A DNA stretch of 64,000 nt from contig JBFLGF010000069.1 of NCBI GenBank assembly GCA_050230475.1, forward strand, positions 1 through 64,000, given 5' to 3'. Shown here piece after piece: positions 917 through 35,246 of this stretch. Source of the DNA: Ancylonema sp. (Eukaryota). A program made the translations under genes and the position numbers. The first letter of the stretch is position 1. Each line of letters begins with the position of its first letter. Below the pieces are notes generated by a model, which was given only the letters and a program-made list of their open reading frames with translations, had not been told where the DNA came from and searched no databases.

Positions 917-1426
917 TCAATAGGTTCCCCTTCCACAATCACTGGAGCATCAGCACTGGGTCCTTAGTCGTCGTCTTCATTTCCTCCCTCATCTCCACCA
1001 CTTCCCTCGTCGTCGTCACTACTGTCTTCCACCAAAACATGCATTTCCAGCTGATGATTCACTTCCCCCACAGAAAAAACATCATCATTGAGATCTGGAA
1101 ACATGAGCAGATCGACATCATCAAACTCCCCACCATCAACTGCTTTTTTCCACCAGCCAACCTCAATATTTTCATCGACATCGGGAACCCCCACATTGAA
1201 CACCTTCCCCCTCACTATATCCGAGACTCGATATCCGATACTCCTAGCAGGATATCCAACGACTACCCCCTCCCACTTCGTTACTCCCCTCTCCCCCTTT
1301 CTCTTAAACTATTCCATCGACACTTAGGCTTTGCTCCCATAAGCTCTTAGATGTTTGATCGTTGGAGTACTACCAGACCACAACTCATTTGGGGTCTTAC
1401 TCAGACCGATCACTGGTCCTCTGTTT

Positions 1427-4227
1427 TGTCGTGCCGTTAAGCATCGTGCCCCATTCACACGTGTAACCCATTCGATATAACGAACATTGTTACAATGAGT
1501 ATGAATCACGTGCGAAATATGAATCTGGTGCGAATTATGTGTCGTCTCATCACATGGAGTGTTTGCACATAGAATCATGACCTAGTCGAGGTCCGCCACA
1601 CACACGTGTGTACAAGCATCGCGCAAGTCTACCACATGTCAAATATGATTTTCTAGTCTACCTATGGCAAGGCGTTGCCATTGGACTGAACGTAGAGTGT
1701 TCGAAGCTGATGAAAGGTATGAGATTGCAAGATGCGATCACACAAGATCTGAAATGAATTCACACAATCGCGAAAATGCCAGCCGAACACAATGAGAATT
1801 GGATGGACAATGGTATTGTATTCCTCAGAGATTCCCGAGGAGTGATAAGACCAATTAAAGGTCGAATCACTCCTGTTACAGACTTTATAGAACTCAGCTC
1901 AGCAATCTATGCTAGTTACAAGGAAGCTACCATTCCTGCCGTATCGACTTATGGCGCCGGCTCGGCGGTTTTAGCTAGCCGACTTTTCCTAGTTTATCCA
2001 ATTGTAAACTAGCACGCTAGGACAGATGGTGCAACATGCTTTACTCGAGGTGAGAAGATGTTAAACTAAAATACTGCAGTAGTGTCGATGCGTCACAGCT
2101 ACTGACCAGTATCCCCATAAGTCACAAAATGGCGATCCACGCCTTGTCGCTTTCCTCCCGCAACTAAGATGCCAACTTACGGCGCCTTTACCGCGGGAAT
2201 ATTGCTAGGCGTTGACGGAGGAAACTGTACGCTGAATTGCCAGTGGCCTGGTAACGCAGCTGTCGGTACAGTCCGTCCTTGGTGCCGCCAAATGTGCCGT
2301 AGGTAGGTGGCGGAACAACTATACCGTTCGGTCTAACTAAGGCCTTAGATCCCTTTCACTTGACCAAGGACAAATCCGTCCGAGGGACACGTGTTATTAC
2401 TTCGAACATTTCGATAAGTAAAGTAACCACGCGCATTCCGACTTTCAAATATAGTCGTGAATATCCGTACCCGTGCCATGTCATCGAATAGACACCTTCG
2501 CCATATAAGCACTTCTACCTGAAAAGCGTTCACTAGCGTTATACGTAGTTCTGAGCATATAATCACACTTCACCGTTCAGGCGTATTTACTCTATAGGTA
2601 CTCTCACCGTATAGGCACACCACTTCGAGAAAATACCTTCTCCACTCTATATTCTCACCATATAAGCGATAATCTTCGTTATGAAGGCACACGATCGAAT
2701 ATTGTCCGACAGCTGTCGTGCCGTTAAGCATCGTGCCCCATTCACACGTGTAACCCATTCGATATAACGAACATTGTTATAATGAGTATGAATCACGTGC
2801 GAATTATGTGTCGTCTCATCACATGGAGTGTTTGCACATAGAATCATGACCTAGTCGAGGTCCGCCACACACACGTGAGCGCTAATAAACAACATTGTAC
2901 AAGCATCGCGCAAGTCTACCACATGTCAAATCTTATTTTATTATAGTCTACTGGCAAGGCATTGCCGTTGGTCTGAACGTAGAGTGTTCGAAGCTTATGA
3001 AAGGTATGAGATTGCAATATGCGATCACACAAGAACTGAAATGAATTCACACAATCGCGAAAATGCTAGCCGAACACAATGAGAATTGGATGGAAAATGG
3101 TATTGAATTCCTCAGAGATTCCCGAGGAGTGATAAGACCAATTAAAGGTCGAATCACTCCTGTTACAGACTTTATAGAACTCAGCTCAGCAATCTATGCT
3201 AGTTACAAGGAAGCTACCATTCCTGTCGTATCGACTTACGGCGCCGGCTCGGCGGTTTTTAGCTAGCCGACTTCCTAGTTTATCCAATTGTAAACTAGCA
3301 CGCTAGGACAGATGGTGCAACATGCTTTACTCGAGGTGAGAAGATGTTAAACTAAAATACTGCAGTAGTGTCGATGCGTCACAGCTACTGACCAGTATCC
3401 CCATAAGTCACAAAATGGCGATCCACGCCTTGTCGCTTTCCTCCCGCAACTAAGATGCCAACTTACGGCGCCTTTACCGCGGGAATATTGCTAGGCGTTG
3501 ACGGAGGAAACTGTACGCTGAATTGCCAGTGGCCTGGTAACGCAGCTGTCGGTACAGTCCGTCCTTGGTGCCGCCAAATGTGCCGTAGGTAGGTGGCGGA
3601 ACAACTATACCGTTCGGTCTAACTAAGGCCTTAGATCCCTTTCACTTGACCAAGGACAAATCCGTCCGAGGGACACGTGTTATTACTTCGAACATTTCGA
3701 TAAGTAAAGTAACCACGCGCATTCCGACTTTCAAATATAGTCGTGAATATCCGTACCCGTGCCATGTCATCGAATAGACACCTTCGCCATATAAGCACTT
3801 CTACCTGAAAAGCGTTCACTAGCGTTATACGTAGTTCTGAGCATATAATCACACTTCACCGTTCAGGCGTATTTACTCTATAGGTACTCTCACCGTATAG
3901 GCACACTAGGCACACTTCGTGAAAAGACATTCTCCACTCTATAGGCGCTTCTCACCATATAAGCGTATGAAGGCACACGATCGAATATTGTCCGACAGCT
4001 GTCGTGCCGTTAAGCATCGTGCCCCATTCACACGTGTAACCCATTCGATATAACGAACATTGTTATAATGAGTATGAATCACGTGCGAATTATGTGTCGT
4101 CTCATCACATGGAGTGTTTGCACATAGAATCATGACCTAGTCGAGGTCCGCCACACACACGTGAGCGCTAATAAACAACATTGTACAAGCATCGCGCAAG
4201 TCTACCACATGTCAAATCTTATTTTCT
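1427..4227. repeat. Tandem array of the ~1286-bp LTR unit: 1427-2711, 2714-3997, partial 4000-4227
   Basis: Near-identical copies, each starting TGTCGTGCC; the two full copies end TTGTCCGACA and are joined by GC spacers. The short ORFs 2345-2566 and 3631-3852 translate identically. Confidence 0.95.
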
Positions 4228-4235
4228 CCCCCCCC
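4228..4235 (-). other. Polypurine tract (G8) of the Gypsy element
   Basis: C8 run on the plus strand directly abutting the end of LTR homology at 4227. Confidence 0.75.
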
Positions 4236-4818: not shown

Positions 4819-4956
4819 TTAATGCTTAGGGCACGTCCATGGTTCGATCGGCACCCTCATCAAAGGCTTGTCAAGACACCATACGTGACAACCCGCGTTG
4901 CACTTATCACAAACGACCATTTTTGTCGCCGCCCGCCGTTGCCGCATTACTTGGCA
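4819..4956 (-). pseudogene. PHD finger at the C-terminus of Gypsy pol
   Basis: Hand translation, not in the ORF track: CQV...MVVCDKCNAGCHVWCLDKPLMRVPIEPWTCPKH*, matching the PHD pattern CDxC-GxHxxCL-VP-W-CP. Confidence 0.85.
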
Positions 4957-5080
4957 ATGGAGAGATGGACCTCGGAAGTTAACGTTCGGGGGTACATCTT
5001 GGTGTCAAGGATGGGAAGGGGAAACCGTGGGCGATGTTCTTTATCTGCTCCTCCCGTCTTGCCGCAATCGCTCCCCTCCA

Positions 5081-6060
5081 TTAACCACTACCCCGCTTTG
5101 GTTTGATCTCCACGATTCGTGACACATGAGGCCTGGATGGTGCCTCCAACGTGCTGACCTTGACTTGTCGTAGCATGACATAATCTCCGGGAGCAAAAGA
5201 TGCCTTGGGCCGATCCCATCCCCCGCCTCGCACTAAGCGGTACCGCTCCATGTCTCGTTGCTGGGCAATCGCAAGGGGCATGACACGTTTGAACGCCTGT
5301 CCACGGCGGTCCAAGAAAGCCCGCAGTCCCTCCTCCACTGTCTCAAGGTCTAGGACCTCCGCGTGTGACTCCTGAAGACGACTCTGAATGATGGGGTCCC
5401 GTCCGAACATCAAAAAGTATGGAGAATAGCCCACCGCCTTTTGCTTTGACATGCGGTAGCCCATGGCGACGTAGGGAAGGAGCTCGTCCCATTCCTCCCC
5501 ACCACCATCTAGAAGGCACTTCCTAAGCTTCATGGTCTGGACCATGCGCTCCGCCAAGCCGTCCGATTGAGGGTGCTCTCGAGACGCCAACCTGTGGGTG
5601 ATTTCGGGTTTGGCAAGGAGAGTTTGGAAATCTCCTTCAAAGTCTGTCCCTTGGTCTGTGAGAATCACCCCTAGTGCTCCGTATCGGCTCAACACCCCGT
5701 CCAGCAGTCCCCTCGCCGAGTCCCGAGATGATTTGGAGGGTAAGGGGATAAGTTCAATCCACTTGGTAAAATTGCATACCATGACATAGGTATTGTTCGC
5801 TGATGTCCTAGGAGGCCCGGCGGCAAAATCTACCCCCCACCTGTAGCCCAACCCTTAGACGGGTAGTGGCTGTAGCTCCTTCCCGGACTCCTCCCGAAAG
5901 CCCGCCTTTACCCGTGCACAAGGGTGGCATGCTCTGATGACGGTCATAATCATGTCGCCCATGTTGCGCCACTAGTAGTTCTTCTGAAGCCGATCAAGGA
6001 CCCGTTGGTGGACCCCGAAATGTCCCATCCCTTGATGGGTGTTGATGACAATTCCCTGGC
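5081..6060 (-). pseudogene. Gypsy integrase (HHCC zinc finger plus DDE core), frameshifted
   Basis: H-GMGHFGV; WGVDFAAG; ILTDQGTDF; HPQSDGLAERMVQT; GYSPYFLMFGR. Confidence 0.93.
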
Positions 6061-6359
6061 GGTCGGCTGGACGTGGCACCACTACGATCCTCCCCCCTTG
6101 TAGTGACTCCATCACCCCGTCGCACATCCAACGATAAGACTTGGCCCTCCGATAGATCCGATCCCGCATTTTAGCGCTCAGCCCGTCGCGGTCCTTGTGG
6201 GTTTGAATGAAGTGTAGTACATCGGTGTCGTGCCAGATGTCGCGTTCCTCCTCGCTGACATCCGTCGGTGTAGTCGCTCCCGCCATCAGCGCCAAGAAAG
6301 TGGTTGGTGCCAAAACTTCCCCTATGGTCCAGTCTAGAAGTGGTGCATTGGCAGCCGAT

Positions 6360-7640
6360 GGAAGGGGGTAACGACTCAGGCAGTCCGCGTTGGTGTTGGC
6401 AGTCCCCGCCCGATGTTCCACCGTAAAATCATACTCTTGGAGTAGTAGGCTCCACCTAGCCGCCAATTTACCCCCGTTAGCTTTTGAGTGGTCATAATCC
6501 ATTTTAAAGGTTCATGATCAGTCACAAGGGTGAAAGAATTCCCAAACAAGTAAGGCCGGAAATGACTAGTGGCCCATACAACGGCCAGACATTCCCCATC
6601 GAAAGATGCGTAATTCTGCTCCGCGGCGTTGCAAGATCTGGAAGCGTAGCATATTGGGTGCTCCACGCCTTCCGAGTTGCGTTGGCTCAGTATTGCGCCC
6701 CCGTTGGCTCCATTCCGTAGTGAGAATGAAAGGGGAGTAAGGGTCCGGGAGTCGTAGGACTGCGGCACTGCAGAGTTATTCTTTGAGCTCCAGATATGCA
6801 GACTCTTGCGCTTCCCCCCATTCCCATGGCCGGTCTTTCTTCAGTAGCGCGTTAAGGGGAAATGCGATGGAGCTGAAGTGTAAGACAAACTTCCTGTAGT
6901 ATGAAAACAACCCCAAAGATGCCCTCAAGCTAGATATGTCTGTTGGTGAGGGGAGATCACGGACTGCCGCTAGTTTATCCTGTTGGGGCTCCAACTTATC
7001 GGCTAAGATGCGATGGCCAAGGAAGTCGATGCTGTCCGCGCCGAACACGCATTTCCTTGGGTGTACTTTTAAGCCTGCGTCGCGCAATCTCCCAAACACT
7101 ATCTATAAGTGTTGAATATGTTCCTCCACCGTCGTAGACCAGATGATGATGTCGTCGATGTAACATCGACAGAATGAGAAGTCTTTAAGGACCTCATCCA
7201 TTCTGCGTTGGAAATGTGGCGGGGCATTTTTCAGTCCAAACGGCACCACCAACCATTCCCAAAGTATGCGATTAGCCCCCCAGAAGGCCGTCTTGGAGCG
7301 ATCCTCCTCGCGTAAGGGCATCTGGTGGTAACCGCTCCTCAGATCTAATTTCGAAAAGATCGTTGCCCCCCCCATCTGATTGAAGATGTCCTCCATTCTA
7401 GGTAAAGGGTATCGGTCCAGGGTGGTCTCCAGATTTAATGGTCTGTAGTCCCCACACTGTCTGAAGTCCGTATAGTTGCCCTCCGTATCCTTCTTCCGTA
7501 CGACGACGGTTGCGGACGCGTACATGGATTGGGTAGATCTCTGAATAAACCCAAGCGCCTCTAGTTTCTGACATTGCGCTTGAACAAAATCCCACTCCAC
7601 CTGACCCAGTTTGTGCGGGGGCCGAAAGATCGGTTAGCTG
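6360..7640 (-). pseudogene. Gypsy reverse transcriptase and RNase H, with stops and frameshifts
   Basis: DYRPLN, FSKLDLRSGYHQ, PFGLKNAP, YIDDIII, SLGLFSYYRKFV; RNase H GAILSQ...PICYASR...EQNY...FTLVTDHEPL...ARWSLLLQEYDF...NADCLSR. Confidence 0.95.
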
Positions 7641-8139
7641 GAGTTGAGGTGGATCTGAAGGGGCTCTCCTGTAAAGGGCTCAATGTCCTCCAATGAGAAA
7701 GCGAAACGATCCAACGATCCAAGTTGGTAATCGCCAGGACCTTCAGTTGGTCCTACTCTTGTAGGCTTGCGCCTATTTGAAATTTCGGGGTTGGCGACTT
7801 GTCCCGCTGAGGGGGACCTGGCGTACTCCCCCCCTCGCCCTCAGGGGCTAAAACCCTAGGGTTTTGAGTAGACCCTCCTGGGGATTCCGTGGCAAGTAAA
7901 GCGTTGACCACCCCCATGGCAGCATGACGTGGAAGATTAGGAGGAGATTGGAAAAGGGATGCATCCACTGTAACCCTTTCTCTCATGGCTGGGATGTAGT
8001 GGAGAGACGTGAAAGAAGGATGGATGGAAGGAAGGGTGATGTCCCCCCCCCCAGGTGAGAGAGGATGTCTCTGAATCTGGGTGGGGTGAGATCCCTATGC
8101 CTGGCTGGCATGCAAGAAGGCACCCAACCACCGCAGTAT

Positions 8140-9110
8140 TTCCGTCCAAAGCGCGCCCCAAACGAATAGCGCGGTGATCCTCCGTGACGCCAGATGTGAC
8201 CGTATCGCCAGCGTGAAATCCCAAAAGGAGCTCTTTCTCCGTGGCATCTGGCTCCTCTCCCAACTGTTGGTGTGGATTATACACTGACCCTCCCCGGGTG
8301 CTCCATCGGCTTTAGCACGGAATGCACATTGCTCCCCAAGTATATGAAACCACGGTAGGCATACAGATGCGCGCCCATCCAAGTTGTTTGTGGGGGGGAA
8401 ATGGGTGGCGATCCGTGTGACCTGGTTTGGTGGGGATGTGATAGGGTCTGAGGATGGTGTCCACCAGAGAAGGGGATGGCGGTAGGATGGGCAGCGCAGC
8501 TTGAAGGGTTGAAGGGGGCAGCATGTTAGTCCATAAAAGGCGCACACGATGGGCGGCTGCCCCAAATGTGCTCCATCCAACCAGGATAGGTGCTCCCAAG
8601 AATGCGTGCACTAACTCCCCTACTTTGTTGACTGCTGGGGCACATGTCTCCCCTGGGTAGGTGTTATCCAAAATGTAGAGCATTGGTGACTCCTGTTCGC
8701 GCTGAAAGAAGTTGATGATACGCACCAAGTCGTAGAAGAAGGTGAAGCGGGGATCCTCGGGATCCTCGGCGCCCAGCTGCCGTCCGGCCCGGCTGACACT
8801 CTAGCATTCCCTACTTCCCCCAAGGAGGTCCACTGGTCCATAGCGTGCCACCAAATTTGCAAGAAAAAGTTGGCTGACAGCGGAGATGGACTGCTTGTCA
8901 AATGATCGTATGGCGGAATCCAGGAGTTGACGAGGATATTGGCGTTGCAGGCTGGTCAATACACAAATCGTGCGATGTGCGACGGCTGATGTCGTCTTTG
9001 TCCACGTAGGTGTAGCAACGTATGCAATAGCCTGCTGCTAGGGCAGTTCGAAGAACTCCCAGGCCAAGCCAATTCCCCCAAAAAAATCCAGCACGTGTAA
9101 GCCATTTTCA
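8140..9110 (-). pseudogene. C5 cytosine DNA methyltransferase domain embedded in pol between protease and RT
   Basis: Motif I VLDFFGGIG (~9095); motif II YTYVDKD; motif IV DLL-GSREC*SVSRAG with the catalytic Cys (~8805); motif V DPRFTFFY; motif VI YILDN; motif VIII AHRVRLLWTN; motif IX EKELLLGF; motif X RLGRALD. Order is canonical; frameshifts and a stop are present. Confidence 0.88.
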
Positions 9111-9465: not shown

Positions 9466-11747
9466 CTAGGAGGCCACTGAAGCAAGCGTAAGCGATGAGA
9501 GGTGGAGATGACGTGTGACATATGGGGCAGATATCTCGTGTACATGTGCCACCCCATCGCTCCCCGTCCACCGACACTTGAATTGCTCCGTGTATGTGTC
9601 GTAGGCTCCACCCATTGATGTCATGAACTCCATGCCTAGCAAGACGTCGTAGGCAGTCGTGTCCACAATGGTGAAAAATAGCCATATTGTATGCATGTGT
9701 GGGTGTGGCGTTCCCCGGCCGAAAGTGAACTTCACCTTTCCCCGTGATACGCCAAGTGGCATTACTACAGCTCCACTTGCTGTAACATACTCCACTCCTC
9801 TAGTCAGGTTGTTGGAGTTGATTTGCATTGCAGCCGCGAATGTCTAGCTCAGCATCACGTTGGTGGCCCCGGTGTCGAGTATGGCCTCTTTTGGCACACA
9901 TCCCTCTACATCGAGTACCCCATGTGTATTGTCGATGTAAGCTGGTTGTTGCTCGGTCCGCCTCTGGCACCCGCGAATGGTTCCTCGTGTATGATGGGCA
10001 CACGTTGATCCGGGAAGCGCCTTTCTTGGTCTGTCGCCTTATCCCACAGGCTTGCGGACAATTCCGCCACCAGTTGTTGCAGGTTTGTGGCTGCATGTCG
10101 GAGCTGTGCCATGGTCTGCAGGGGTGTTTCTGTCATCAAGATCTCCCCATCTCCGAGTGGCGCCTCTGGAAATAAATTGGTAGGCGGGAATCGTAGATCG
10201 GATGTCCCCGGCTCCAAGCTGGATGGAGGTAAGCCATGCGGGAATGATTGCGGCAGTTGTCCCTTGAATGCGTATTTGTTACTTTGGAAGCCAGGCGTAG
10301 TGTCTGGTTCCTCTTGTGTAGGAAACAAACGATCGACGGACTCTGGAGTAGGGTCAGCAACGAGTGGAGGAGAAGGAGGCGTAAAGTGGACTCGTCGTCC
10401 TCGTGCCTGCTCCGATGATTGCCGTGCTGCCTCCGTGGGTAGGCTGGGCCTTGTTGACCGCCTCTGCACCATGGCCAGATGAGGTCGCCGATAGGTGAGG
10501 GCCATTCCCTGGCCTAGAAGTGATAGTTGGGTGGGGCTGACGTAATCGGCTGCTTTTCTCCTCTTACGCGCTGTTGCTGACAACGCTTGCTGCCTCTTCT
10601 TTAGTGGTGCTTCTAGCACCAGCTCCGGGTGTGCCGACCAACACTGCGCCTCTGTATGACCTGGCTTGTTGCAGGATTCACACACATGCCCCGTGGTCTT
10701 GTGGGTGGCCATCGCGTCAGTATTGTTGACAATTGTCTTGCCATTGGTGGCTGGGGTTGTGGTTGTTGGGCAATTCCTGGCGAGTCCTGTCTTCTTTACA
10801 CTCGCGGTTGTCGTGCGTTAGTGCACTCTCCCCTCTAGTTCCGAGTCGGTCTCGTACATCTCGCGGTTGAGTGCCCAAACGATCTCCCACCGCTCTATGT
10901 GGTCTTGGAGGTGGTGGTGGTGCCGAGGGGAGTCGCTCATCACTTGTGGGTCGTGGATTAGGTATCTGGCCAGCTGCGCGCATCTCAGCTTCAAATTCCT
11001 CCAGAAGAAAGCCCTCCTTACGTTGCGCTAGTGCCATCAGTTGTTCGTCCATGTCCATGATGAATGGCGTCCCCTTCTCGAATCGTTTCTCTCTCATCCT
11101 CCCTCATCATTGAGTTGATGGTGGACCGCCTGATGTGAGTGGGATATGTTGTCGTAGGTTCAACGCCAATCCACGTGTTGTCATTAGTCCCGCTGTGAGC
11201 AGTGGTATCGCCACTTCATCAAAGTGGTCAGCCAATTGTAGGAGTGATTCCCGTGGTTTAGCTTTAAACGCATGCAGGTCCTCCAAGTAAATAGCCGATG
11301 CAGCCTGAAATGAAATGTCTCCTGTACAATAGCGAGGAACTCGTCCAATTCAGCTGGCTCCGGAATAGGATCATCCAACAAATCAGGTTGTGCGGGTGAT
11401 GGTCCTCCCGTCTGGACTTGAATCTGGCGTAAGTCGTAGACTGACTTGGCCTTGTAGTAGTGCCTCCATTTGGCACGACTCGCTTCTCGTGTGACGGCCT
11501 CCTCGTAGAATGGGTTGGTCTCGTCACAGTAATCCCATTTGTCAATGAAATTGTCCAGCAGACGTCGGGCCTGTCCTCCCATACGTAGTCCCAATGACTC
11601 AAGGTATTCGTATTGTGCGATACCGTTGGCCAATTGTTTCATTGGGTCGTTGAGCAGGTTACGCCACCCGATACGCGCGTCTTTGATGCAAATCCTCTGC
11701 TCATTGCTGCCGTCACCAGTGTATTTCTTATCACTTACTGGATTCAT
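9466..11747 (-). pseudogene. Gypsy gag (with CCHC knuckle) and aspartic protease, fragmented
   Basis: CESCNKPGHTEAQCW at ~10685; protease AILDTGATNVML at ~9885-9851 and YDVLLGMEF. Confidence 0.8.
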
Positions 11748-11816
11748 GATGTCAAACTTTTTTTCTTTTTTTTTGCGATATCAAATTCTGAACTTCGGAA
11801 TTTAACAAAAATTTCC

Positions 11817-11830
11817 AATTGGTCTTATCA
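11817..11830 (-). other. Primer binding site TGATAAGACCAATT, self-complementary type
   Basis: Abuts the LTR boundary at 11831; exact reverse complement of LTR positions 12019-12032; does not begin TGG as a tRNA PBS would. Confidence 0.75.
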
Positions 11831-12882
11831 AGTCTACCTATGGCAAGGCGTTGCCGTTGGTCTGACGTAGAGTGTTCAAAGCTTATGAAAGGTATGAGAT
11901 TGCGATATGCGATCACACAAGATCTGAAATGAATTCACACAATCGCGAAAATGCCAGCCGAAGCCGAACACAAAATTGGATGGAAAATGGTATTGAATTC
12001 CTCAGAGGTTCCCAGGAGTGATAAGACCAATTAAAGGTCGAATCACTCCTGTTACAGACTTTATAGAACTCAGCTCAGCAATCTATGCTAGTTACAAGGA
12101 AGCTACAATTTCTGCCGTATCGACTTACGGCGCCGGCTCGGCGGTTTTAGCTAGCCGACTTACTAGTTGATCCAATTGTAAACTAGCACGCTAGGACAGA
12201 TGGTGCAACATGCTTTACTCGAGCTGAGAAGATGTTAAACCAAAATACTGCAGTAGTGTCTCGTATGCGCACAGCTACTGACCAGTATCCGCATAAGTCA
12301 CAAAATGGCGATCCACGCCTTGTACGTGTCGCCTTCCCGCAACTAAGATAACATGCCAACTTACGGCGCCTTTAACGCGGTGTGAATATTGCTAGGCGTT
12401 GACGGAGGAAACTGTACGCTGAATTGCCAGTGGCCTGGTAACGCAGCTGTCGGTACAGTCCGTCCTTGGTGCCGCCAAATGTGCCGTAGGAGGTGGCGGA
12501 ACAACTATACCATTCGGTCTAACTAACTAAGGCCTTAGATCCCTTTCACTTGACCAAGGACAAATCCGTCCGAGGGACACGTGTTATTACTTCGAACATT
12601 TCGATAAATAACCACGCGCATTCCGACTTTCAAATATAGTCGTAAATATCCGTACCCGTGCCATGTCATCGAATAGACACCTTCGCCATATTCGCACTTC
12701 TACCTTATAAGCGTTCACTCGCGTTATAAGTAGTTCTGAGCATATAATCACACTTCACCGTTCAGGCGTATTTACTCTATAGGTACTCTCACGTATAGGC
12801 ACACTTTTCGAGAAAAGACACATTCTCCACTCTATAGGCGCTTCTCACCATATAAGCGTTAATCTTCGTTATGAAGGCACAC
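11831..12882 (-). repeat. 5' LTR segment X of the Gypsy element, with TATAAA at 12065-12060
   Basis: Homologous to 1655-2692 and 2945-3978 with small indels; lacks the 228-bp Y segment, which lies at 4000-4227. Confidence 0.9.
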
Positions 12883-15028
12883 CTAGACACTAAGCAACCT
12901 TGTTTCGAATGCACGATGCAGTTGAGATTGCCTCCACCCAAAACCCCCATCCTAAGCCAGCACCTACCAACATTGATCTTGCCTTGTCTTGCAGCGTACG
13001 ATTCATTCGCACCGCAATCCCATTGCTTTGAGGTGAACGTGCTGAGATAGTTTGATGAAGAATGCCATGCTCCCTAAACCGAGTCTCAAGTGCTGTATCG
13101 ATATATTCTCCTCCTTTGTCTGACCTGATTTTCTTGACCCTCCTTCCAGTCTGATTTTCGTTTACTGTGATCCACTCCTTGAGAGCAACCTTAGTGTCGC
13201 TCTTCTGTCGAAGTGGCACCGTCTAGGACTTCCGACTGAAATCATCGATGATCACCAAGTTGTGCTGGCTGCCTCCTCCTCCCATTGCCTTTGGGTTAAA
13301 AGGGCCAACGATATCCGTATGAGCTAGCTCAAGAGGCTCCTTCGCCTTGTACTCCTGAATTTTCCTTGGATGTGATTTCTCGCTGGACTTTCCAACTTAT
13401 AACTTTGGCACATTCCGAAGTCCCCTCTGATCCCCTCCTCCAATCCCCCGACCAGTTGCTCTTGCAGTAATCTCTCCATTCCCCCCTAAGATGTGTGCCC
13501 AAGCCTTCTGTGAAGCAATTCCATGCTTATCCATTTTCCTCCAAGTGCCTCTCCCTCCATTTCCTCAAGTCCATGGAGCCCCTCGCAGATAAAGGTAGGT
13601 CTCGCTTTCAACGATTCTCTCATTTTAGCTATTTGCTCTCCTTCTTTGTTCAAGACGGGACTCTCTTTCCCAGGCTAAGGCTCCCCTTTGAAAGAAAAAC
13701 TTCAAGCACCCTTGTCCCGGATTCGCTAAAGCGAGAAGATATTCACCTTCATCCCTCGCAGAAACAACACCTCATGAAGCTCTAGTACACCTCTCACTCC
13801 ATTCCCCTTGTCAGTGGACAGGCGCACTACTCCCCATTTAGTTATGACCACCTTTCCTTTAATCTGCTTGTTATGGAATGTTGATGGAATGTCTTCGAGG
13901 AAGTCAAACATATTTATGCCACCCGACATGTGATAGTCAGCTCCGACCCACTCCCTCTCTTCTCCATCACCATCTCCTATGCCCATGTTGATCTCCCCAA
14001 TCAGCACCTTTGCATGTCCCTAATCTTCCCCATCTGTCCCCTTCCCAAATATTTCATGGCCACCTAGGCCTCTCCTTGCGCTACAAGCACCTCGACCCCT
14101 TGTTCTTGTACCACCGGATTTTCCTCCCCTTGCAGCTCCATTTGCCTTGTTGTAATATGTTAACTCAATGTGTCCTACTCCTCCACACCATGTACAGACG
14201 CTATCCTTCTTTGGGCACTCTCTGCTCTAATGGTCCGACTCACCACATCTGAAACAATTTGTTGATTTCCCTTCACTTCCTCCACCGCTTCGACCGCTGA
14301 GATTTCCCCTTCCTCCCCCCCTAAAGCTCCCTCGACCCCTCGTAGGCTGATAATAGATTTCTATCGCCATTGCCGACGCTCCAGATTGCAGCGCCCACCT
14401 CTTCTTTGTAGACTCTATATCATACATTCGATCCCAGATGTAGTCTATGGGTGGAGCTGGAGTTTGCGCGAAGTACGACTCACAGAGTATATCATACTTC
14501 TCTGGTAGAGCACCAAGGCGTGTCTGCAGCCGATTATTTGCTCTTATCATACCACCCTGTACTGTCACCTTGCGTGAGAGCTCATTGTACCTCTGCTTGA
14601 TAGTAAGATAAGACTCATCACCACTGATTGTGAAGAAAAGAAACTCTGTGCGCGCTGATGATCGCTGCGCGGGTGTCACTGTATTGTAGTCTGCTCCAAA
14701 TTGTGCCTACATGAGGACAAGGTTGTTACCATGAACATCGAGACACATGACAAAACTGTCGTCTACCGTCTGAGTGATAAGTGACGCGGCCTTCTTGGCC
14801 CAATCCTTGATTTCCACGTGTCTTTTCTCAACCTCCGCAATATTGACCGGAACGTTTTCAGCATCTTGAACTTTTGCGATTTCAAAAGGCTCCATCTCTG
14901 TACCGTTTAATATTTCCAAACAGTCCTCTGCATCCACGATTGCCGTGAGTTTTGTTCTCCACGGAGCGTAAGACAATGCGTCCTTCAACACCATCTTTTT
15001 TACATACTCTGAGGATCCGGAGCTAGAG

Positions 15029-15445
15029 GCTCTGATACCACTTGTGGACGCCATGTTGACGTATACTCTTGACTTAACTCTTAACTCACTCAGAACTCAA
15101 ATAGTGCTCAATGAATATTAACACATACACATACTCAATTGCGCATTCACATACATTTTAAACTCATACACATTGTGCACGATACATAGACAAAGCTTCT
15201 TTCATGAACAACAAGTGAAAACAAATGCTGGAGAAGGATTGTCACTATAGTGGTTTGGTTAGCGAATCTCGATCCGCTAGCCAAAAGTATGACCTTGGAA
15301 CACGCAACCGAGTCCAAACATTCATAAACGACTTACGACCCTAGATACATCAAACGATCAATCTAAACTCGGTCATACACAATCTTCATAAATACGCACG
15401 CACGCGCCAAGCTAGACTACGCCGTCGCCACGTTGTCACTAACAC
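15029..15445 (-). repeat. Copia tRNA-iMet PBS (TGGTATCAGAGC, 15040-15029) and truncated 5' LTR (15043-15445)
   Basis: Canonical plant PBS 2 nt after the LTR CA; LTR homologous to 59389-59792. Confidence 0.85.
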
Positions 15446-17491
15446 AAAGGCTATCAAAAGCCTCGCCTAATTTTGAAAGACGGGAATTATCGACACTAGA
15501 GTACAATCATCGAACAAGTGCCTCGAAAGAAAAAGGTTTGGGTCCACGTGCAAGGTACGGTGGCACCACCCGGACCAATTTTGCAACTTGGCGCTTGCGC
15601 TTCGCCAGCAGTCCCCGCAGTACCCGAGATCGTCGCCGCGATGGGCGTAGCCGCAGTTCTCGCCGTACCCGCCGTACCAACAAACGCTGGCGTTACAAAG
15701 GCGCAGGTCGACGCTTCTCGCGTGGCCCACGATCAACACGCCGTGAACGAGGCGAAGGCCGACTCCATGATCCTTCTCACGCTCAATCCGAAGGACCCAA
15801 TGACCCTGATTGCGTATATCACGGCAGCGAAAAAGTGGACAAAGCTTGCCGCTGATCACGTGTCAATTACAGCGTCGAAGGGAATCAATGCTACTCAAAA
15901 AATTCAGTCGTTTGTATTTATTGTAGGAGAAACAGTCTACTAGAGCAGGCAACGCTTCGACGGCCTAGTCACCGAATGCGCGCTTCAGGGTATCGTCCTG
16001 TCCGAGATGTTGAAAACCACGGTGCTTCTTACGCACCCAACTGAGAGGTGGAAGACCTTCATTGACTCCATCTCCTTTCAGGGTCCTCTCCCGACAACAA
16101 CAATAATATTTCACCACATGATCATCCTTTCATAAAAGAGGGAGGCCCGAGACGAGAAGGAACACACTAAAGCGAATTTCGCGGACTACAAGCGACGGAC
16201 GCGTCATCCATCGACAGGTGGCCAGAGACGAGTTCAGAGCCGGAATGAGGTTCAGCATTAGCAGCCAAGGCGAGAGGTTCTTCAACCAGGGTCTGCAAAT
16301 CCCTGCTTTTGTTGCGGAAGTTTCCTGCACCTTTTCGCGACGTGCCCTAAGAAAGATCTGAGTTGCAATGTTTGCGACAAGAAGGGGCCAGGTGTAAGCT
16401 ACGACGAACAAGGCAATAGTTGATCAGCCTTCAACTTCCGTGGGCAAGCCAAAGAAAATTGAGTTCGCGGGGGACCTAAAAAGGCATCTGCTCTGAAAAA
16501 GGCTATGGCCGCGGAAATCATCGAAGTAGAGGCTGGCAAAATTTGCAATGTTTCAAGCAATGAGTGGTTGGCTGATAGTGGTGCGAGTAGGCAAATTTGC
16601 AACGATGTACGCATGCTATGGGATGTGAGGCAGCTTCCAGTACCCATCATAGTCGGGCACCTAGCGGATGAAGTCCCGATTACGCAAAGTGGGACTGTAA
16701 AAATTCAGTGTGAGAATGAAACAGGAGAGGTGGTGCAAATTGATCTTCACGATGCTTTGTTTGTGCCTAACTTTCGTGTTAATTTATTCAGCATGCAAAG
16801 AATGAGGCAGGCACGCGTCCGATCAAAGATAGTAGGTAGTAAGTACCCATCAAAGATAGGGACAATTTGGATGATAAATAGTTTAGGCAATTACATAGGT
16901 AGTCTTGATGAAAGCTATCTAGGCAGGCCCACTTTGAATTGTCGCACCCTACTCTGTGACGTGGCTGCCTACACCTTTTTCCCTCCTACTCTGGATCCAG
17001 ACCCACGTACGACTGAAGTCGTCGCGGAGCAGGCTGTTGCAGCTGCTAACGTCACAGGGGACTTGTGAGCAACCGCCCCTGCTCCCTCTGTTACGGCACA
17101 TTCTACCGCAACCGAGGCCGCTTCAGAGACACCTTGGAAAAATCTGCCCTGCAATTCAACTTGATCTCCTACACCGACGCACAGGCCACTCTGCTCTATG
17201 TACACTGTTGCAGCTAAGAGGCGAAGGCCTGGTTCGACCTCTCGACTCTGGCTCTGAACTCGTCTCTGGCCACCTGTCGATGGCTGACGCGTCCGTCGCT
17301 TGTAGTCCGCAAAATTTGCCACAGTGTGTTCCTTCTCGTCTCGGGCCTCCCACTTTTATGAAAGGATGATCATTTGGTGAAATATTATTGTTGTCGTCGG
17401 GAGAGGGACCCTGAAAGGAGATGGAGTCAATGAAGGTCTTCCACCTCTTAGTAGGGTGCGTAAGAAGCACCGTGGTTTTCAACATCTCGGA
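15446..17491 (+). mobile_element. Second Copia family fragment (gag, protease, GAG-pre-integrase start) with an inverted duplication of part of gag
   Basis: Degenerate gag; WLADSGASRQIC protease (~16565); LFVPNFRVNLFS; LDLLHRRTGH (~17160); 17250-17491 is the reverse complement of 16001-16241. Confidence 0.8.
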
Positions 17492-17825: not shown

Positions 17826-19723
17826 CTGCTGCAGGTTCACCCCGCGGTCCAGAGCCCTCTGAATGAGCCCAAAAGCGGAATCGAACGAAATGGCATTCAG
17901 ACTCCGCTTCTCCCTGCGCACCCACCCACCCACAGCGCGCACAGGCTGGCAGTGCTGGTATAACCGACCCACAACTTCTCACGTTCGTTATAAGTGGGGC
18001 ATGGGCCAGCTATGCTCACCCACCCCTCGGTAGAGCGATCCGATGACAGCTGCCACGTGTGTGATACGTTATGACTTACTTGTTCTATTTCGAAGCAGTT
18101 CTAGAGACCTGAAGTTGCCAATCAGAAGAGAGGGGTTCTCCATCCTCTGAAATTTATGTGAATTACGACAGCGGCCCCTCCCCACATCGCATTCCTCAAA
18201 TTTAACTGCACCGAAATCAGCCACCCCGCAGTCCTCCTCCCCCCCCCCACTACCAACCTCTCCATACCCTCCCCTCACTTCTCACCTACCCCTCTCAAAG
18301 ACACTGCAGTTATGAACCGACTGACCAATCACGTTCCAATTAGGACTGTCGTGTTCCACCGGTGGCTAAGATTGTTAGGTGTTGCCTAACAAATCAAGTG
18401 CAGAAAACAGTTTTTTTAGGGTTGTTATAGTGGAACAAACTTGTGTTGTCAGTAGAGACGGAATCCGCAATTTTTAGCCACTTATCAAGTAAGTGGGGTT
18501 ATAAGCCTCACATTCTGAGCATGGACGCCGAAATCGCCTCGGGGGAGATGACATCCACAGCCCATCCCATGAGGGGGTCGGACACAATGGCAGCGTACAG
18601 CTGCTCACGCTTTGCTTCGCTCAGAGTCTTCGAATCTGATTCGGAAGGGGTAAGGGGTAAGAGGTAAGGGGTAAGGGGTAAGAGGTGAGATTCAATGTCG
18701 ATAGTCTATGCTATTGTTTTTTATTCTCATTGTTACTGTCAATTATTTTTATTATTATTGTTACTACTGCTATACTTTTTGTTATTATTATTATTGTTAT
18801 TATTATTGTTGTTATTATTTCTACCATTTAGATTGTATGGGATTACAATTTCTGTCAATGATAGCAAATATTGTATTTATTGCTATCATTGCTATTGTTA
18901 TGACCACCATTATCATTATCATTATCATAACTATACTGATTCTCTTATTTGTATCATTCTTGTGAATTTTATTACCATTACATTCGTCTTCATCATCACG
19001 ACTATTCTGAATATTATTGTCATCTTAATAACAATTGTCACGAACATTTTTAGTGCACCGACAAATGTTTAGTATCATTCCTATGATGGTCGTTATGATG
19101 GGACCGACATTATTGTTGTCCGGCCTTCAAAACCGACATCCGGCCTCCCGATCTGGAGTGCTAGATGGGACCCACACCGCTGATCTGAGGCACCCCCTTT
19201 ATACCGACCAAGTGAGTGTGTTTTCACCTGCGAATTCAAGAGTGCCGATTCTCTTTTTCTGGGAGATGGGACAATATGCGCATCCGTACACCATGGGGCC
19301 TGCGCAGGGAGACACGGGGCTGGGCATCCTCAGAAGCTTCCTCGCCACCTCATGCATCGCAGTGCTTGACAGGATTCACCCAGAAAGGGTCAAAACATAA
19401 ATGTAATGGGTAGAGGGGGATAAGGAGGGGTAAGGAAGCGAAGGAGTTCGTGACACTGGGGTTATCAGGAAGTCAACGCAGGTGCGCGTGGCAAAACGAG
19501 TTGCAGGACGAAAAGATCCGCCTAGAGTCATGCAAGCATCTGGCGAGATACTGGTTCTCGTTTCACACAGCAGGGTGACACATTTGAAATCAGACGGCCA
19601 CATTGGCAGAATCTGAGTCGAATACGTACCCAAGACCGGGCCTCTACCAGCCTCGTCTATCCCGAGCATGCAGGGCTCTTCGAACCAATCGCGGTTCGGA
19701 GGAGGCACCATTGCTAACGCCAT
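17826..19723 (-). CDS. RNASEH2A: Ribonuclease H2 subunit A, first four exons (19723-19630, 19299-19228, 18635-18512, 17913-17826); 3' part not found
   Basis: LGIDEAGRGPVLG/PMVYGCAYCP/DSKTL...GWAVDVISP/SLNAISFDSAFGLI; GT-AG junctions in phase. Confidence 0.92.
18700..19100. repeat. Degenerate ATT/ATC triplet low-complexity tract in an RNase H2A intron
   Basis: Visible TAT/TGT/CAT repeats that generate spurious ORFs. Confidence 0.85.
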
Positions 19724-19871
19724 GATCTGGATTTGACTTCCGCACTTTGTAGAGTCGGAAGCTCAGATTCTTGGTCGCGAGGAAGTGAAGAGATAGATTA
19801 AACGAAACAGTCGCACTGGTGCCGGAGAAGGGACCCTCCACCACCGAATACCGACTTGCGGTGTAGCATCT

Positions 19872-22278: not shown

Positions 22279-24768
22279 ATGACTGATAGGGCCTATGATT
22301 ACCGGGAGGCAAAGTTAGATCAGCATGAAGACATTTCTGCTCCGCGGACGCCTCAATCTGCCGCCAGTTCCGAGTCTGGTGGGGACCGGCACTTTCGCAT
22401 TGGTAACATCATCCTCCAGGCTGCTCAGCAAGCGCAGCAAGATGAGCAGGCGCAGGCAACTGCCCGGACTGCGGCACAAATTGCCGCTCAAGCACGAAAG
22501 ATGAGGTCTCGTACTCGGAAAGTGCAACCTGTAGCAGCAGATCAAGATTATGATGTGGAATCGTCAGGGATGAGTCATCGTGTACCTTCCAATACGGAAT
22601 GGGGAATGGGGTCCGGGGATATGGATAGCGACATGGGGACCCAGGACGTGGAGAATTCACCCACCGCGAAGGATATCCGTGGACAGAAATCCTTATATCC
22701 CGACGGGAAGGCTTACAGTCTTCCTCTCCCGCCTGCCTTTGCTCTCTTGGACATTGAGAAGCCCGGGAAACGATCATTGTTCAGTGTACGGCTATCCCGT
22801 CCCTCACTCTCCTACCTTTGCCCCTTCCGGCCGTAACCAAACGTGAATATAACGGCTCAAATACCACCCGTGATCACACTGCGACACAGACCCTCCCACC
22901 CATAAAATACGATTTTTCAACCTGACACCAAGTTGCCGTATTTTGGGCCTATCAAGTGCCGTGAACGGGTGCCACCACGCTGTATCTAGTTTCGCATAAT
23001 CTTCCACATTCACTATACAGCAACAACACTATCCGTAAGTGTAAGCTATATACCGCTGTGTAACAGAACCTGGTCATAACTCCACAGTTTTTTTTTTTTT
23101 AATGGATATCGTCTCTCTCCACTGCCTGTTCTCAGCGTCCTGGAGAATGTCAGGTCACGTGAATGTATCATTGCTCTAGTCGACTGTGTTAACAAGCGCC
23201 AGTCCGGAAGTATGGGCCCCCCTTGTGCTCTAGTTGGACATTCAAGCGCCCTCCCCCTCAATACAAGTAGTCATACACGTCTAGCTGTCGTACAATGTGA
23301 AAGAAAGCTGAGAAATTCACACCCGATTGGCAAATATTTACAGAGATGACGACTCTCTTTACGTTTCTAGTAGTCACACATTTCTCTCCCTGGGCTGTGG
23401 CATACTCATTCGCGAGCACTTGTAGTATATCACACAGAAATATTGATATGAGAAATATGAGAAATATGAGAAATATTGATGTCCTCATAAATTCACGCAT
23501 TTCTCTCTTTTCAGAACTCATTGTTCAAGGGGCCGCCTGGATACCGCGTCTGCTTGTGGACGGCGATAACCCTCATGGCGCTTTCCACCATCATCGGCCT
23601 CAGTATGATCACAGCTTTCGTAGCGCTTCAGCCGAAAGCACCCACGTATGACTTGCAGGAGGTCCGAGTGCAGGTCTGTGTTTTTCACTCGCTGACGTTC
23701 GGGAATATGATCTTGCTAGCTAGTTGCACAGTTCTGGTCGCGGTGTTGCCCGAGGTAATATCGTCATTCGACCGATGGCCGCAAAATTGGAAGTGGGTTA
23801 GTCAGACAGACAGACAGGTGCGGATCAGGACCGAAGTTAGCTTTCCTCGAACTGGGGATTCCAAATTTGGAGTGTAGGCAGGGTTAACCGGTGTAACAGA
23901 GGGGTTGGAGTATAGGAGGCACTGAAGTTGCGTCGTCATTCGACGCAACTTCCGTACTCTGTATGGAGAGAGCCGCCATGATTCGCAATGATCGACTTGC
24001 TTGTCTGTGAGCCTCGGAGGGCAGGTGCATGCACTGTGTCAGTAGGAAGTACTGTCGGAGGACTATGGATACGAAGCTGATAGTGAATTTGCAAAATGCC
24101 CTCAGCTTGGGCGGAAACAAGAGCATATACTGAGCAGTGGTTGATAGTTTCGGTCATATGAATGCAATGGTAACAAGGAGACTGAAGAGTTTTTATTTCC
24201 AGGAATGAGGAAAGAAGGTGACGTGAAAATGTGTGGTCCTGGGGGATGGAACACTGTGTGGGTCAGTACTTGGTCACTCATCACTGACAGGTGTGTCTCG
24301 TCGCCTTTGCATGTGCAGTGGTGGCTGACCTACCGGGACACCGCCGGTTACCTCCCCGCCACCAAAGTCAACAATGGCACTGCAATTTCCACAGTGTACC
24401 TTTACGCAGACGTGGTCCTGGTTACCAAGGCCGAGAACCACAATAATCAAATCGGGATTCACTACCAGAATACCACGTTCGAGATTTCCTACCAAGGCAC
24501 GCGAATCGGATTCGTAACGGTACCTCCGGTCTACCAACCGCCCAACAACGTAACTTCCGTTCTAGCGGAGTGGAAATGTGACGGATGTGTCGTTTTGGAC
24601 GTGGGTCATTATTTGGAAGCGGACCAGCTGATGGGGTCGGTGCCTCTGAACATCAAGATGACTGTCGACGCCAGTGTCGAAATTGCTGGGGTGGTGTCTC
24701 CGGGTTACGTTTACACCAACACATATGATGTGAAAATAAAGCCCCCGCCATCCACTTCTGGGAGTTAG
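22279..24768 (+). CDS. LEA_2 / NDR1-HIN1-like membrane protein (exons ~22279-22785, 23530-23673, 24319-24768)
   Basis: Disordered N-terminus, TM helix then ALQPKAPTY, and KAENHNNQIGIHY...ISYQGTRIG...PPVYQPP; splice sites in phase. Confidence 0.8.
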
Positions 24769-32600: not shown

Positions 32601-34632
32601 GACACGCATGCAGGGGGTTGCCACCTGGCGGGGAAGCGTTGGGCGGGAGGGGGAGGGTTTCGAACCAAAGGCAGGACTTGGACTGTGGGGGCTTTGAGAG
32701 ATATGCGACCACTTAGATTCAGATTCGGATTCACTTGCGGTGGCATATTTAGCGTGCCGTTCGTTGATTCTGATATATCTTTATGGCAAAGCACCTACTC
32801 ACCGACCAACAGTCCATACCAAACAAACTAGATCGTGGCATCTGGCAGATGCCCCTACTGCTTACATCAGCGAGGTCTTCCAGCAACTGCCTCTGAAGGT
32901 TCTGCAGCCTCTGCTCCGCTCGTATTTGCTCTGGCGTCGCCCCGTCAGCGATCGACTTCACCCCCCCCGCAGTGTCGTACAGCAGACAGAGCTGAGTCAG
33001 CAGTCGGAGGTAGCAGTCCATCGCATACGTCCTCCCAGCGCATTCCCAGCCCACACAGGGACGCCCAACCTCCAGAACCTCAAGCGCAGACTGGGCCCAT
33101 TTGGCAGCGCTACCCTCCGTGTTCCCGAGGACTCCGGAGGATCTCATGCCAGTGGTTGGGGAGCGGAGGGGGGGGGGGGGCTGGGAAAGTTGGAAGCAGG
33201 TTTCTGCCAGACAAGCGAGGAGCTCTTCGCGGAACAAGGAGTTGGCAGAAACGGCAGAAAACTCTTCGCGAGTTTGAGCATCTTCCAACAGCGCGCCGAC
33301 ATCTGTCCCTGCCAGAGGCTTCTGCCCCCTCCTAGCACTCTCCTTCACAAACAGGTCCAGACAGAGAGCTGTCTGACAGATGCAGGCCAACGCATGCATG
33401 CGATCGGCCTCCATTCTGAGGTTGCGCACCATCACCAGCAGCCTCTTGAAGAGCGCCACCTGGAGGTGCAGATCCAGCAGCTTGAGGTTCGAAACCACCG
33501 CCCTCACAATGGCTTCCCTCCCGGCACTGTACTCCTGACGATCCCACAGCGTCAGAAAGGCTGTGATTGGTCCAAGGGCCCACTCAGGCTTCCCCCCCGG
33601 GACACCGGCCAATGACAGGACCTGGATGCCGACCTCATACACGAGCGCGGGGTCCAGGGAGGAGGAGAGGAAGGGGGAGAGGTGGGAGATGATGTCAGAG
33701 ACCCCCAAGATTCTTTCCGCATTCACCAAGTCCTTTTCGACCCCAGCTCCGACCCCCAGCCTCCCCCCCCGGCTCGGTTGGGCCCCTTTTCTGTTGGCCG
33801 TGAAAGACTTCATGTCGTCTAACATGCCTGATGCGACCGCTCGAGCGGCGTAGACGAGGGGGTAAACCGTTGACCTCATTTTGTCGAGTGGCAGGACAGC
33901 GGCACGAGCCATGAGGAGATCGCGTTTGGACCATACGAATTCAACTGTCGAGATGACGAATTGGGATCGGACGGCCAATGAGGACTCGGTGGAAATGATT
34001 TTGTCGCCAGCGAGGCGAGATAACCGCTTGGTGGCAAATTCGGAGAAGAGGCTGCCCACGGCGTCAAACGCGGCGGATGATACGGAGTCGGCGGTGTCCA
34101 GCATGGAGCGACAGATTTGGGTCCACCAGAAGTTGGCGCGCTCGAGCAGAGTGACACTTGTCGCGCAGAGCAGAGCCATGTCATCCCGCGCCAGAAGACA
34201 TCCGAGGGTTTCGACAGTCACCTGGCGCAGTGCCACGTGGTCGTGGACCATGCAGGCGCTTATGTCGTTGCTGCACTCCGTCACGAAATCACCCACGCGC
34301 CAGCTGGGGAGGGCGGTGAGAAACGAGAGACTGACGGCTGTCAATTCGGGATTGCTGGAATTGAAATCCGTTGTCATCCCGCGGCAGACGATCTCCCACT
34401 CGTCCGCAATCAGACGTGAGATGCGGACGCAATCATCAGCGAGTTTCTTACACACCACACTCGTGCCACTGTTGGCGATCAGTTCATTGCAGAAAGTGGG
34501 AGCCAAAGAGGAAATGTCTTTTCCGGAAGCTGCCAGCTGCAACGCGACCAGAAGCGAGGATGACTGACGATCGAGATCGGTAGAAACGACGTCAGCTTTG
34601 ATGGCCTGATAAATCAAGTCCATAGTAGCCAT
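29639..34632 (-). CDS. TPLATE: TPLATE, core subunit of the TPLATE/TSET endocytic adaptor complex; 7 exons (34632-32866, 32624-32442, ~32364-32252, ~32124-31814, ~31364-31242, 30950-30459, 30037-29639)
   Basis: MDLIYQAIKAD...ALQLAASGKDIS; GVPGGKPEWA; RPCVGWECAGRTYAMDCYL; YPFTHHKL...AAQDRKLE; LSGSSDP; FERSALCVQLLYY; LCYMAKTWYG. Confidence 0.95.
30069..30154. repeat. Heptamer array (AGAATCY)n in the last TPLATE intron
   Basis: About 12 tandem AGAATCT/AGAATCC units. Confidence 0.9.
31420..31730. repeat. Degenerate (ATAC)n/RY microsatellite in a TPLATE intron
   Basis: Seen directly. Confidence 0.9.
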
Positions 34633-35246
34633 GATTGCGAGCGGATGGTGCGTATACTACAGCTGGGTCAGAGGCTGGACGGAAAAGCGAGACGGGAGGA
34701 CTACTCAGAGAGAGGTGCGGATGGTGCGTAGAAAACTCGCGCGAGGGGGACGGAACTCACGAGAAAGGTTATGTACGTAAGGTGCCATCACGCCTTTCGA
34801 TGTGTGCGTACTGTCGCTCCATGGCAATACAGAGCGTCCAGGTTACCGCGACGCACATCAGGACATCCCAATACAATCTGATACGGGGCCTTGCCTGGAG
34901 GTCGCTCTGACACGGAGCTCCTCAACAATTTGTCACGCGAAAGGAATGTACCTTTTGCCGGTGGTACGGTTTTGTACGGAGAGAGAACTGGGCCAGGGTG
35001 ACACTTCTTTCCACGCCTTCGGCTCGCGGTTTGTTTCCGTACTATCATATCTCGGCCAGTTCCAGTCAAAATGGCGAGACCTACAACAGAAGTAACCGAA
35101 AGATGCACCGATACAGCGGGTACCATTATCTGAACCCCACTTTTAAAGTTCGCAAGACATGCAGAGTTTTCTCTACTAGCAAACAATCACCTGAGTTGTT
35201 ACTAAACATATCACAGCGAAGGTGAGGAGTAATCAGAGGGTGTACG

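Follow-up and report, generated by a model that had tools for sequence, protein, structure and literature searches.

Organization of the element

The minus strand of the window (the whole 64-kb stretch of DNA analysed) carries, from 12900 to 1427 and inside a Copia element, a decayed Ty3/Gypsy element in which a predicted DNMT3-type cytosine-5 DNA methyltransferase (DNMT) domain lies between the protease and the reverse transcriptase (RT). The Ty3/Gypsy features comprise the order Gag, protease, RT, RNase H and DDE integrase, a primer-binding site, a polypurine tract and a short target duplication (Table 1). A PHD finger, a self-priming site and permuted repeats accompany the DNMT, as the initial annotation had said, with a PF00628 match for the first, 14 of 14 complementary positions for the second and the repeat layout A-coding-B-A-B-A-B, which holds one extra A-B unit, for the third.

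Table 1 Features of the Gypsy element and host genes in the window
Feature	Position	Strand	Basis or remark
Target-site duplication, 5 bp, in Copia element	1422..1426; second copy 12901-12905	.	
Extra left-end piece, 19 nt	12882..12900	-	between target duplication and TG of A1
Repeat A1	11831..12881	-	starts TG; TATA-like box 12065; primer-site complement 12032-12019
Primer-binding site, self-priming type	11817..11830	-	14/14 complementary to 12032-12019
Gag with CCHC knuckle and linker, broken	9949..11750	-	domain searches, alignment
Aspartic protease (D-T-G), one stop	9568..9948	-	domain searches, alignment
DNMT3-type C5 cytosine methyltransferase domain, last of ORF1	8098..9103	-	motifs, relatives, profile, predicted fold
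Motif I	9091-9068	-	three-frame translation
Motif II	about 9014-8994	-	three-frame translation
Motif IV	8830-8801	-	S-R-E-C-stop in window copy
Motif IV core	8801..8812	-	catalytic Cys 8806-8804, Glu before; intact relatives W-E-C-Q
Motif VI	8677-8660	-	D-N-T in window copy
Motif VIII	8554-8525	-	three-frame translation
Motif IX	about 8257-8216	-	three-frame translation
Motif X	8164-8135	-	three-frame translation
Conserved UAG closing ORF1 (Gag-zinc knuckle-protease-DNMT)	8095..8097	-	relatives' C-termini, gap-free contigs
C-rich/G-rich hairpin, candidate readthrough signal	8043..8086	-	core begins 8 nt behind stop
39 in-frame codons, stop to conserved Met position (7977-7975)	7975..8094	-	second half protein-conserved, ORF1 frame
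Reverse transcriptase and RNase H of ORF2, broken	6404..7633	-	domain searches, alignment
Integrase (zinc-binding and rve core), two stops	5135..6196	-	domain searches, alignment
C-terminal PHD finger of ORF2	4822..4989	-	PF00628 E 3e-7
Polypurine tract	4228..4235	-	adjoins repeat B1
3' repeats B1-spacer-A2-B2-spacer-A3-B3	1427..4227	-	B ends CA, 22-nt spacer, A starts TG
LEA_2 protein gene	24148-24768		
Long helical-repeat protein gene	32749-34656		
Ribosomal S9 gene	35685-36350		
TPR protein gene	37962-40345		
Der-type double GTPase gene	47466-50689		

Two whole LTRs with TG...CA ends are absent; CA and TG face inward across the 22-nt spacer, and the right end of the element is the CA of B3. 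Because the polypurine tract abuts B1 and the primer-binding site lies behind A1, the reverse-transcription unit is, by its layout, B-spacer-A, without TG...CA ends. The complement of the primer-binding site sits in A1, 33 nt downstream of the TATA-like box. Self-priming is the mechanism of Tf1. The 19-nt piece at the left end has no match longer than 9 nt elsewhere in the window. The extra A-B unit within the 3' repeats measures 1286 bp; B1 and B2 are identical, and differences in B3 and the end of A3 point to a mosaic formed from two variants or to a duplication of recent date. The joint of the empty site (1421>12901) and end-to-end coverage of the element were both found in 4 of 4 runs, and the second Copia copy of the window is also empty. 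Among 20 runs listed, 11, mostly glacier, ice and sediment metagenomes, contained a fraction of 0.25-0.36 of the sampled words. The host is probably a glacier alga of the streptophytes.

The methyltransferase domain

Three-frame translation of the minus strand recovers all the C5-methyltransferase motifs, from I to X, that the initial annotation had named between protease and RT; they are spread across several reading frames in canonical order, and the domain extends approximately 40 nt beyond the lower bound of 8140 given there. A frameshift-aware alignment to one intact relative yields 70% identity over 328 codons, interrupted by five frameshifts (near 9066, 8966, 8335, 8282 and 8134) and one premature stop (8803-8801). 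This corresponds to 1.8 breaks per 100 codons, compared with 10 in the remaining 853 codons of ORF1 and 13 in the 983 scored codons of ORF2, and agrees with the earlier impression that the domain has decayed like the rest of pol. Six of the nine premature stops listed occur at Gln codons of the relative and one at a Trp codon, a pattern that would fit C-to-T decay outside a CG context. On either side of the catalytic Cys, the window copy has Arg for the family Trp and a stop for the family Gln, the family residues being present in about 99% of the summed contig depth (run X1); in motif VI it has Asp in place of a Glu kept in 18 of 18 relatives listed. Given these frameshifts and stops, the altered residues around the Cys and the Asp in motif VI, the window copy of the element is, as read from its sequence, dead.

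The main frame of this copy, with stops written as X, matches PF00145 with an E of 0.012, below the Pfam cut-off, and its single ORF fragments gave no DNMT match to Pfam, whereas all 12 close relatives match PF00145 (E 4e-4 to 9e-9, the curated cut-off of 22 bits being reached by 8 of them). These 12, out of 1092 candidate proteins, match the window domain at 58-71% identity with E 1e-51 or better; related proteins number 458 at E 0.001 or better. DNMT3A is the best match (E 6e-22) of a profile built from 24 divergent relatives, followed by DNMT3B/C and, more weakly, by DRM (2e-13), M.HhaI (7e-9) and DNMT2 (8e-5). An AlphaFold model of P0020, an intact close relative (pLDDT 93.8, 59-row alignment), found DNMT3A/B/C in 33 of the 33 rows listed of a fold search, with a best E of 9e-18 and a target TM of about 0.8. 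By profile and predicted fold the domain is DNMT3-type, and its motif order is unpermuted, unlike that of DRM.

Across the 24 divergent domains the catalytic Cys, the motif VI Glu and the motif VIII Arg are invariant. The residue before the catalytic Cys was scored in 98 domains, which remained of 125 full-length domains once near-duplicates were removed: 62 have Glu there, 20 have Pro, 4 have another residue and 12 could not be parsed. The window's clade lacks the Pro-Cys dipeptide of motif IV and has Glu-Cys (EC) instead; domains of the Pro-Cys (PC) form are scattered across the DNMT tree, which covers domains from retrotransposons. On this distribution EC is a standing feature of the group. 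The EC reading first noticed in the window copy is thus a family trait; an origin by decay of that copy was ruled out by the same count and by the W-E-C-Q of intact relatives.

The DNMT is better conserved than its neighbors in ORF1, with a mean identity among 8 ORF1 relatives of 0.71, compared with 0.63 for the protease and 0.49 for Gag (one pair of the 8 is near-identical), a difference that would point toward purifying selection on the DNMT; among 11 ORF2 relatives the means are 0.86 for RT and 0.76 for integrase. Distances in the DNMT and RT trees agree (rho 0.78 over 34 proteins carrying both domains, 0 of 999 permutations). Because it is better conserved than Gag and protease, and because its tree tracks that of RT, the domain is not a one-off capture and is, by these measures, an old and retained component of the element. 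Other family copies, far from missing the domain, provide the 12 close matches, the 458 related proteins and the congruent trees.

Its position within the wider group varies. Forty of the 98 domains, most of them from a single clade (support 0.91), follow RNase H and/or immediately precede the integrase, with domain order taken from Pfam on 29 long matches picked from 150. A large group of Gypsy polyproteins (P0080, P0100, P0102, P0127, P0297-P0301) has the DNMT3 between RNase H and integrase and ends in a PHD tail, as does the metagenome locus L001:1400-7480; we found no description of this placement in the parts consulted of the literature on DNMT-carrying retrotransposons. A third position, upstream of the protease (DNMT-PR-RT-RH-IN), occurs in P0116, a polyprotein of 2531 aa. 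Searches for DNA of close relatives gave 197 pattern matches in metagenome_contigs and 16 in viral_contigs, none of them confirmed. A second metagenome scan gave 79 loci, and only L001, which has no terminal repeats within its 11 kb, and the short L002 have the appearance of true relatives.

A conserved stop codon after the methyltransferase

The intact close relatives of ORF1 are Gag-knuckle-protease-DNMT proteins of about 1200 aa that end just past the last DNMT helix. Seven of the 12 closest stop at the column of the window's UAG and one stops two residues earlier, while three end before motif X and one is frameshifted; in all, this column is the C-terminus of 31 database proteins, which include many cluster mates. 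The RT-RNaseH-integrase-PHD proteins are separate entries of 1029-1091 aa. Four ORF1/ORF2 protein pairs come from contigs of equal size (7292, 7530, 7714 and 10303), which suggests that the two members of a pair are ORFs of the same contig. Two contigs from other studies span the stop and a G-run without gaps, and no variant touches the stop among the rows listed (40 of 67). A mutation private to the window copy was ruled out by this lack of variants and by the common column in the relatives. The initial annotation, which had described a DNMT built into the retrotransposon polyprotein, was right in placing the domain between protease and RT, but the conserved in-frame stop separates RT from it.

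Trees (FastTree local supports, midpoint root) place the stop clade (support 0.98 for DNMT, 0.94 for RT) as sister to a single-ORF clade (1.0 in both) consisting of P0218, P0220, P0302, P0304 and P0305. More distant DNMT-before-RT elements, such as one with a Closterium protein, likewise have a continuous ORF. Because the sister clade and these more distant elements have one continuous ORF, the stop after the DNMT is probably a derived state. We found no paper on a split Gag-protease-DNMT ORF in the literature searched, mostly freely accessible articles. Another lineage (P0225-P0227, P0283-P0296), near the Closterium elements in the RT tree, carries RT-RH-IN-PHD as a separate ORF of ~1040 aa without a protease.

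Access to ORF2

Readthrough of the stop is the best reading of this junction, and one that we consider slightly better than an even bet on the features of the sequence and by analogy. Behind the stop the window's frame remains open, and its translation aligns with the N-terminal ends of ORF2 relatives. The hairpin behind the stop is predicted to be modestly stable (-29.4 kcal/mol, z -1.75, 9 of 200 shuffles equally good), and in the window copy its predicted stem reaches nearer the stop than 8 nt. Nine proteins were compared with the window over the residues that lie between the G-run and the conserved Met. Six of them, from 5 lineages, match it in the ORF1 frame alone (p 0.002 or less, compared with 0.16 or more in the other frames), one fails and two are too short. 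Because of this match, translation seems to enter ORF2 upstream of the conserved Met. Against readthrough, three proteins (P0205, P0214, P0280) cross the stop from the -1 frame into ORF2, two from copies with other breaks and one that could reflect a one-base slip in the G-run, so that the frame at the junction may not be constant. Frameshifting by -1 was considered as a route to ORF2, and no slippery heptamer was seen ahead of the hairpin.

The same enzyme at the same Gag-level dose would be made if RT-integrase were expressed separately, by Ogre-like splicing, from a subgenomic RNA or from the AUG 39 codons 3' of the stop, a possibility that we rate as a minority one but take seriously. Of 29 N-termini of ORF2, 28 keep the initial Met (in part a bias of gene callers), and in the window copy that Met is preceded by a pyrimidine tract and CAG, which would suit splicing or separate initiation; readthrough is also weakened by the report that the similar junction of Tca2 did not by itself direct readthrough (PMC2194720, as far as consulted). 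Separate expression is harder to reconcile with the protein-like conservation that the ORF1 frame shows ahead of the Met, the lack of a good splice donor seen before the stop and the in-frame spacing in gap-free contigs.

Precedents for either route resemble the junction in part. MuLV and Tca2, in the portions consulted of PMC6317226 and PMC2194720, share with the window a stop, an 8-nt spacer and an RNA structure, but their split precedes the protease, and they combine a purine-rich spacer with a pseudoknot, where the window has a predicted hairpin. In Ogre a stop likewise divides an abundant Gag-side product from RT-integrase, and the split falls after the protease, but an intron is used (PMC6317226, same portions). 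None of the three is described there with a methyltransferase, unlike the window element. Retroelements usually make Gag in about 20-fold excess over Pol (PMC6317226; PMC2194720), and under readthrough or separate expression of ORF2 alike the DNMT would be produced at Gag's abundance. A second stretch conserved at the DNA level across subfamilies (window 7828-7875) contains a palindrome around a telomere-like AAACCCTAG motif.

Relation to known elements

The initial annotation had noted that DNMT-carrying retrotransposons are known from charophyte algae, and such an element is on record: KnitGypsy-Dnmt3 of Klebsormidium nitens (PMC5890265). As the main text of that paper describes it, KnitGypsy-Dnmt3 shares with the window element the Ty3/Gypsy domain set, an intronless and unpermuted DNMT3-type domain with conserved catalytic residues, and a DIRS-like split of its repeats in the layout A-coding-B-A-B. 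It differs in that its DNMT is in one ORF with RT and RNase H, whereas the DNMT of the window element closes the Gag-protease ORF, and the window element has an extra A-B unit. Self-priming, a PHD finger, an internal CA-spacer-TG site and EC are not mentioned in the text consulted (its supplement may show EC or the domain order), and in the parts consulted of later papers citing KnitGypsy-Dnmt3 we found no such structural detail. Likened by description, the window element is probably of the KnitGypsy-Dnmt3 kind, minus the same-ORF feature; no named K. nitens sequence was among the matches, the nearest named relatives being Closterium proteins. Relative to KnitGypsy-Dnmt3, the split of the ORF after the DNMT is, as far as the sequences and that description go, new, and sets the clade apart. 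The proposal that DNMT, permuted LTR, self-priming and PHD together mark a distinct family fares less well: the repeat layout is published, and both RT-RH-IN-PHD and EC are widespread in the group.

The single-ORF sister clade has the same protease-DNMT-RT-RNaseH-integrase-PHD order and W-E-C-Q motif as the window clade, at 48-54% DNMT identity and 66-71% RT identity, but no stop after the DNMT. Closterium sp. NIES-54 CAI7886383.1 also has its DNMT before RT (32% identity) with no stop after it. More remote are SymbioDIRS-Dnmt3 (PMC5890265) and the EpiLTRs (bioRxiv 10.64898/2026.05.21.726589), retrotransposons with a C5 methyltransferase of their own and, according to the parts of those two sources consulted, of independent origins. 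The former, whose domains methylate CG de novo in yeast, is a tyrosine recombinase element (PMC5890265), and the latter carry DNMT4-related modules with DAM and a chromodomain (bioRxiv 10.64898/2026.05.21.726589), unlike the window element in either case. The chromoviruses Tf1 and Tcn1, in the account given in PMC6317226, similarly have a primer site that pairs with the predicted 5' end of the RNA in place of a tRNA; the window element differs in having a PHD in place of a chromodomain, permuted repeats and a DNMT.

Proposed role of the methyltransferase

Cytosine methyltransferases belong to the enzyme class that silences retrotransposons, yet retrotransposons carry them. De Mendoza et al. 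2018 hypothesized that such elements methylate their own cDNA, and argued for action in cis from the DNMT sharing the ORF of RT (PMC5890265, in the text consulted). The window clade breaks that link while the domain is still strongly conserved, so that selection may act on dose or on loading into the particle.

In the reading that we put forward, intact copies would make the DNMT at Gag level, pack it into the particle and methylate new cDNA before integration; we regard it, as a whole, as evenly poised between right and wrong. Most ribosomes would stop after the DNMT, while a minority, aided by the hairpin, would pass the UAG and yield full Pol. The protease would free the DNMT from the Gag-protease-DNMT product, and many copies of it, far more than of the copying enzymes, would be loaded per particle. 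That the DNMT would then methylate the cDNA, so that new copies arrive pre-marked, is suggested by analogy and could go either way. The RNA may prime itself and the integrase may open a two-LTR cDNA circle at the internal CA-spacer-TG site, steps to which we assign a little less than an even chance; the 19 extra nt before the left TG in the single copy examined speak against the circle. CpG depletion is no stronger in the element, with an observed/expected ratio (o/e) of 0.78 in its coding part and 0.79 in the rest of the window (Copia pieces 0.59-0.89; LTR A2 1.14), so there is no sign of extra self-methylation. As a broader and more speculative scenario, which we doubt will hold in all its parts, the DNMT3 captured by an algal Gypsy lineage would have been shifted ahead of a readthrough stop, onto the Gag side, so that the particle holds an active Glu-Cys enzyme in bulk; self-priming would yield a pre-methylated cDNA circle that integrates via att sites inside the LTR, and in the wider group the domain would also have moved between two Pol positions, before RT and between RNase H and integrase.

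An abundant DNMT might instead act in trans, on host chromatin, on rival elements, at the insertion site or in limiting the element's own spread. An enzyme uncoupled from RT and made at a Gag-level dose is more than one cDNA requires, the element lacks extra CpG loss and a PHD finger could tether it to chromatin; but fusion to Gag targets a protein to the cytoplasmic particle, and the PHD sits on the integrase and not on the DNMT, and we consider action in trans improbable. It is less probable still that the EC-type domain is no DNA methylase at all, serving rather as a nucleic-acid-binding or cytosine-trapping module or acting on RNA. Such a view could draw on the Glu that replaces the canonical Pro before the Cys in most of the domains, and on the K. 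nitens domain, which did not methylate yeast DNA, a result that its authors call inconclusive in the text consulted (PMC5890265). The SAM-binding motif I, the Cys, the Glu and the Arg are nevertheless all retained, and the tree does not separate PC from EC forms, as if both were functional. A one-off capture, a chance motif match or an assembly artefact is scarcely credible: the broken copy alone does fall below the Pfam cut-off and the window's repeats are indel-rich, but the hundreds of related proteins, the coverage of the whole element in each of the four runs and the congruent DNMT and RT trees all contradict it.

The family is abundant and offers many intact natural ORFs, with the single-ORF sister clade as a built-in comparison. 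Because these exist, methylation of cDNA by intact copies, activity of the EC motif and readthrough at the junction are all open to direct tests.

Other features of the window

Two related, decayed Copia elements are present, one (1-1421 and 12901-15100) split by the Gypsy insertion and the other at 56000-59500. In a segment of ~1.5 kb at 16001-17491, a Copia-type pol fragment (PF22936) is enclosed by inverted arms of 86 nt and 160 nt (94-98%). An array of 67-bp repeats at 53994-54737 forms a large palindrome, and a DUF4460-like gene fragment is duplicated at 53033-53854 and 61269-62132, the copies being 88-96% identical and 8.3 kb apart. Intron-containing host genes lie within 19376-50689 (Table 1); the exon at 19376-19762, which we take from its motif to be RNase H2-like, is without a Pfam match.
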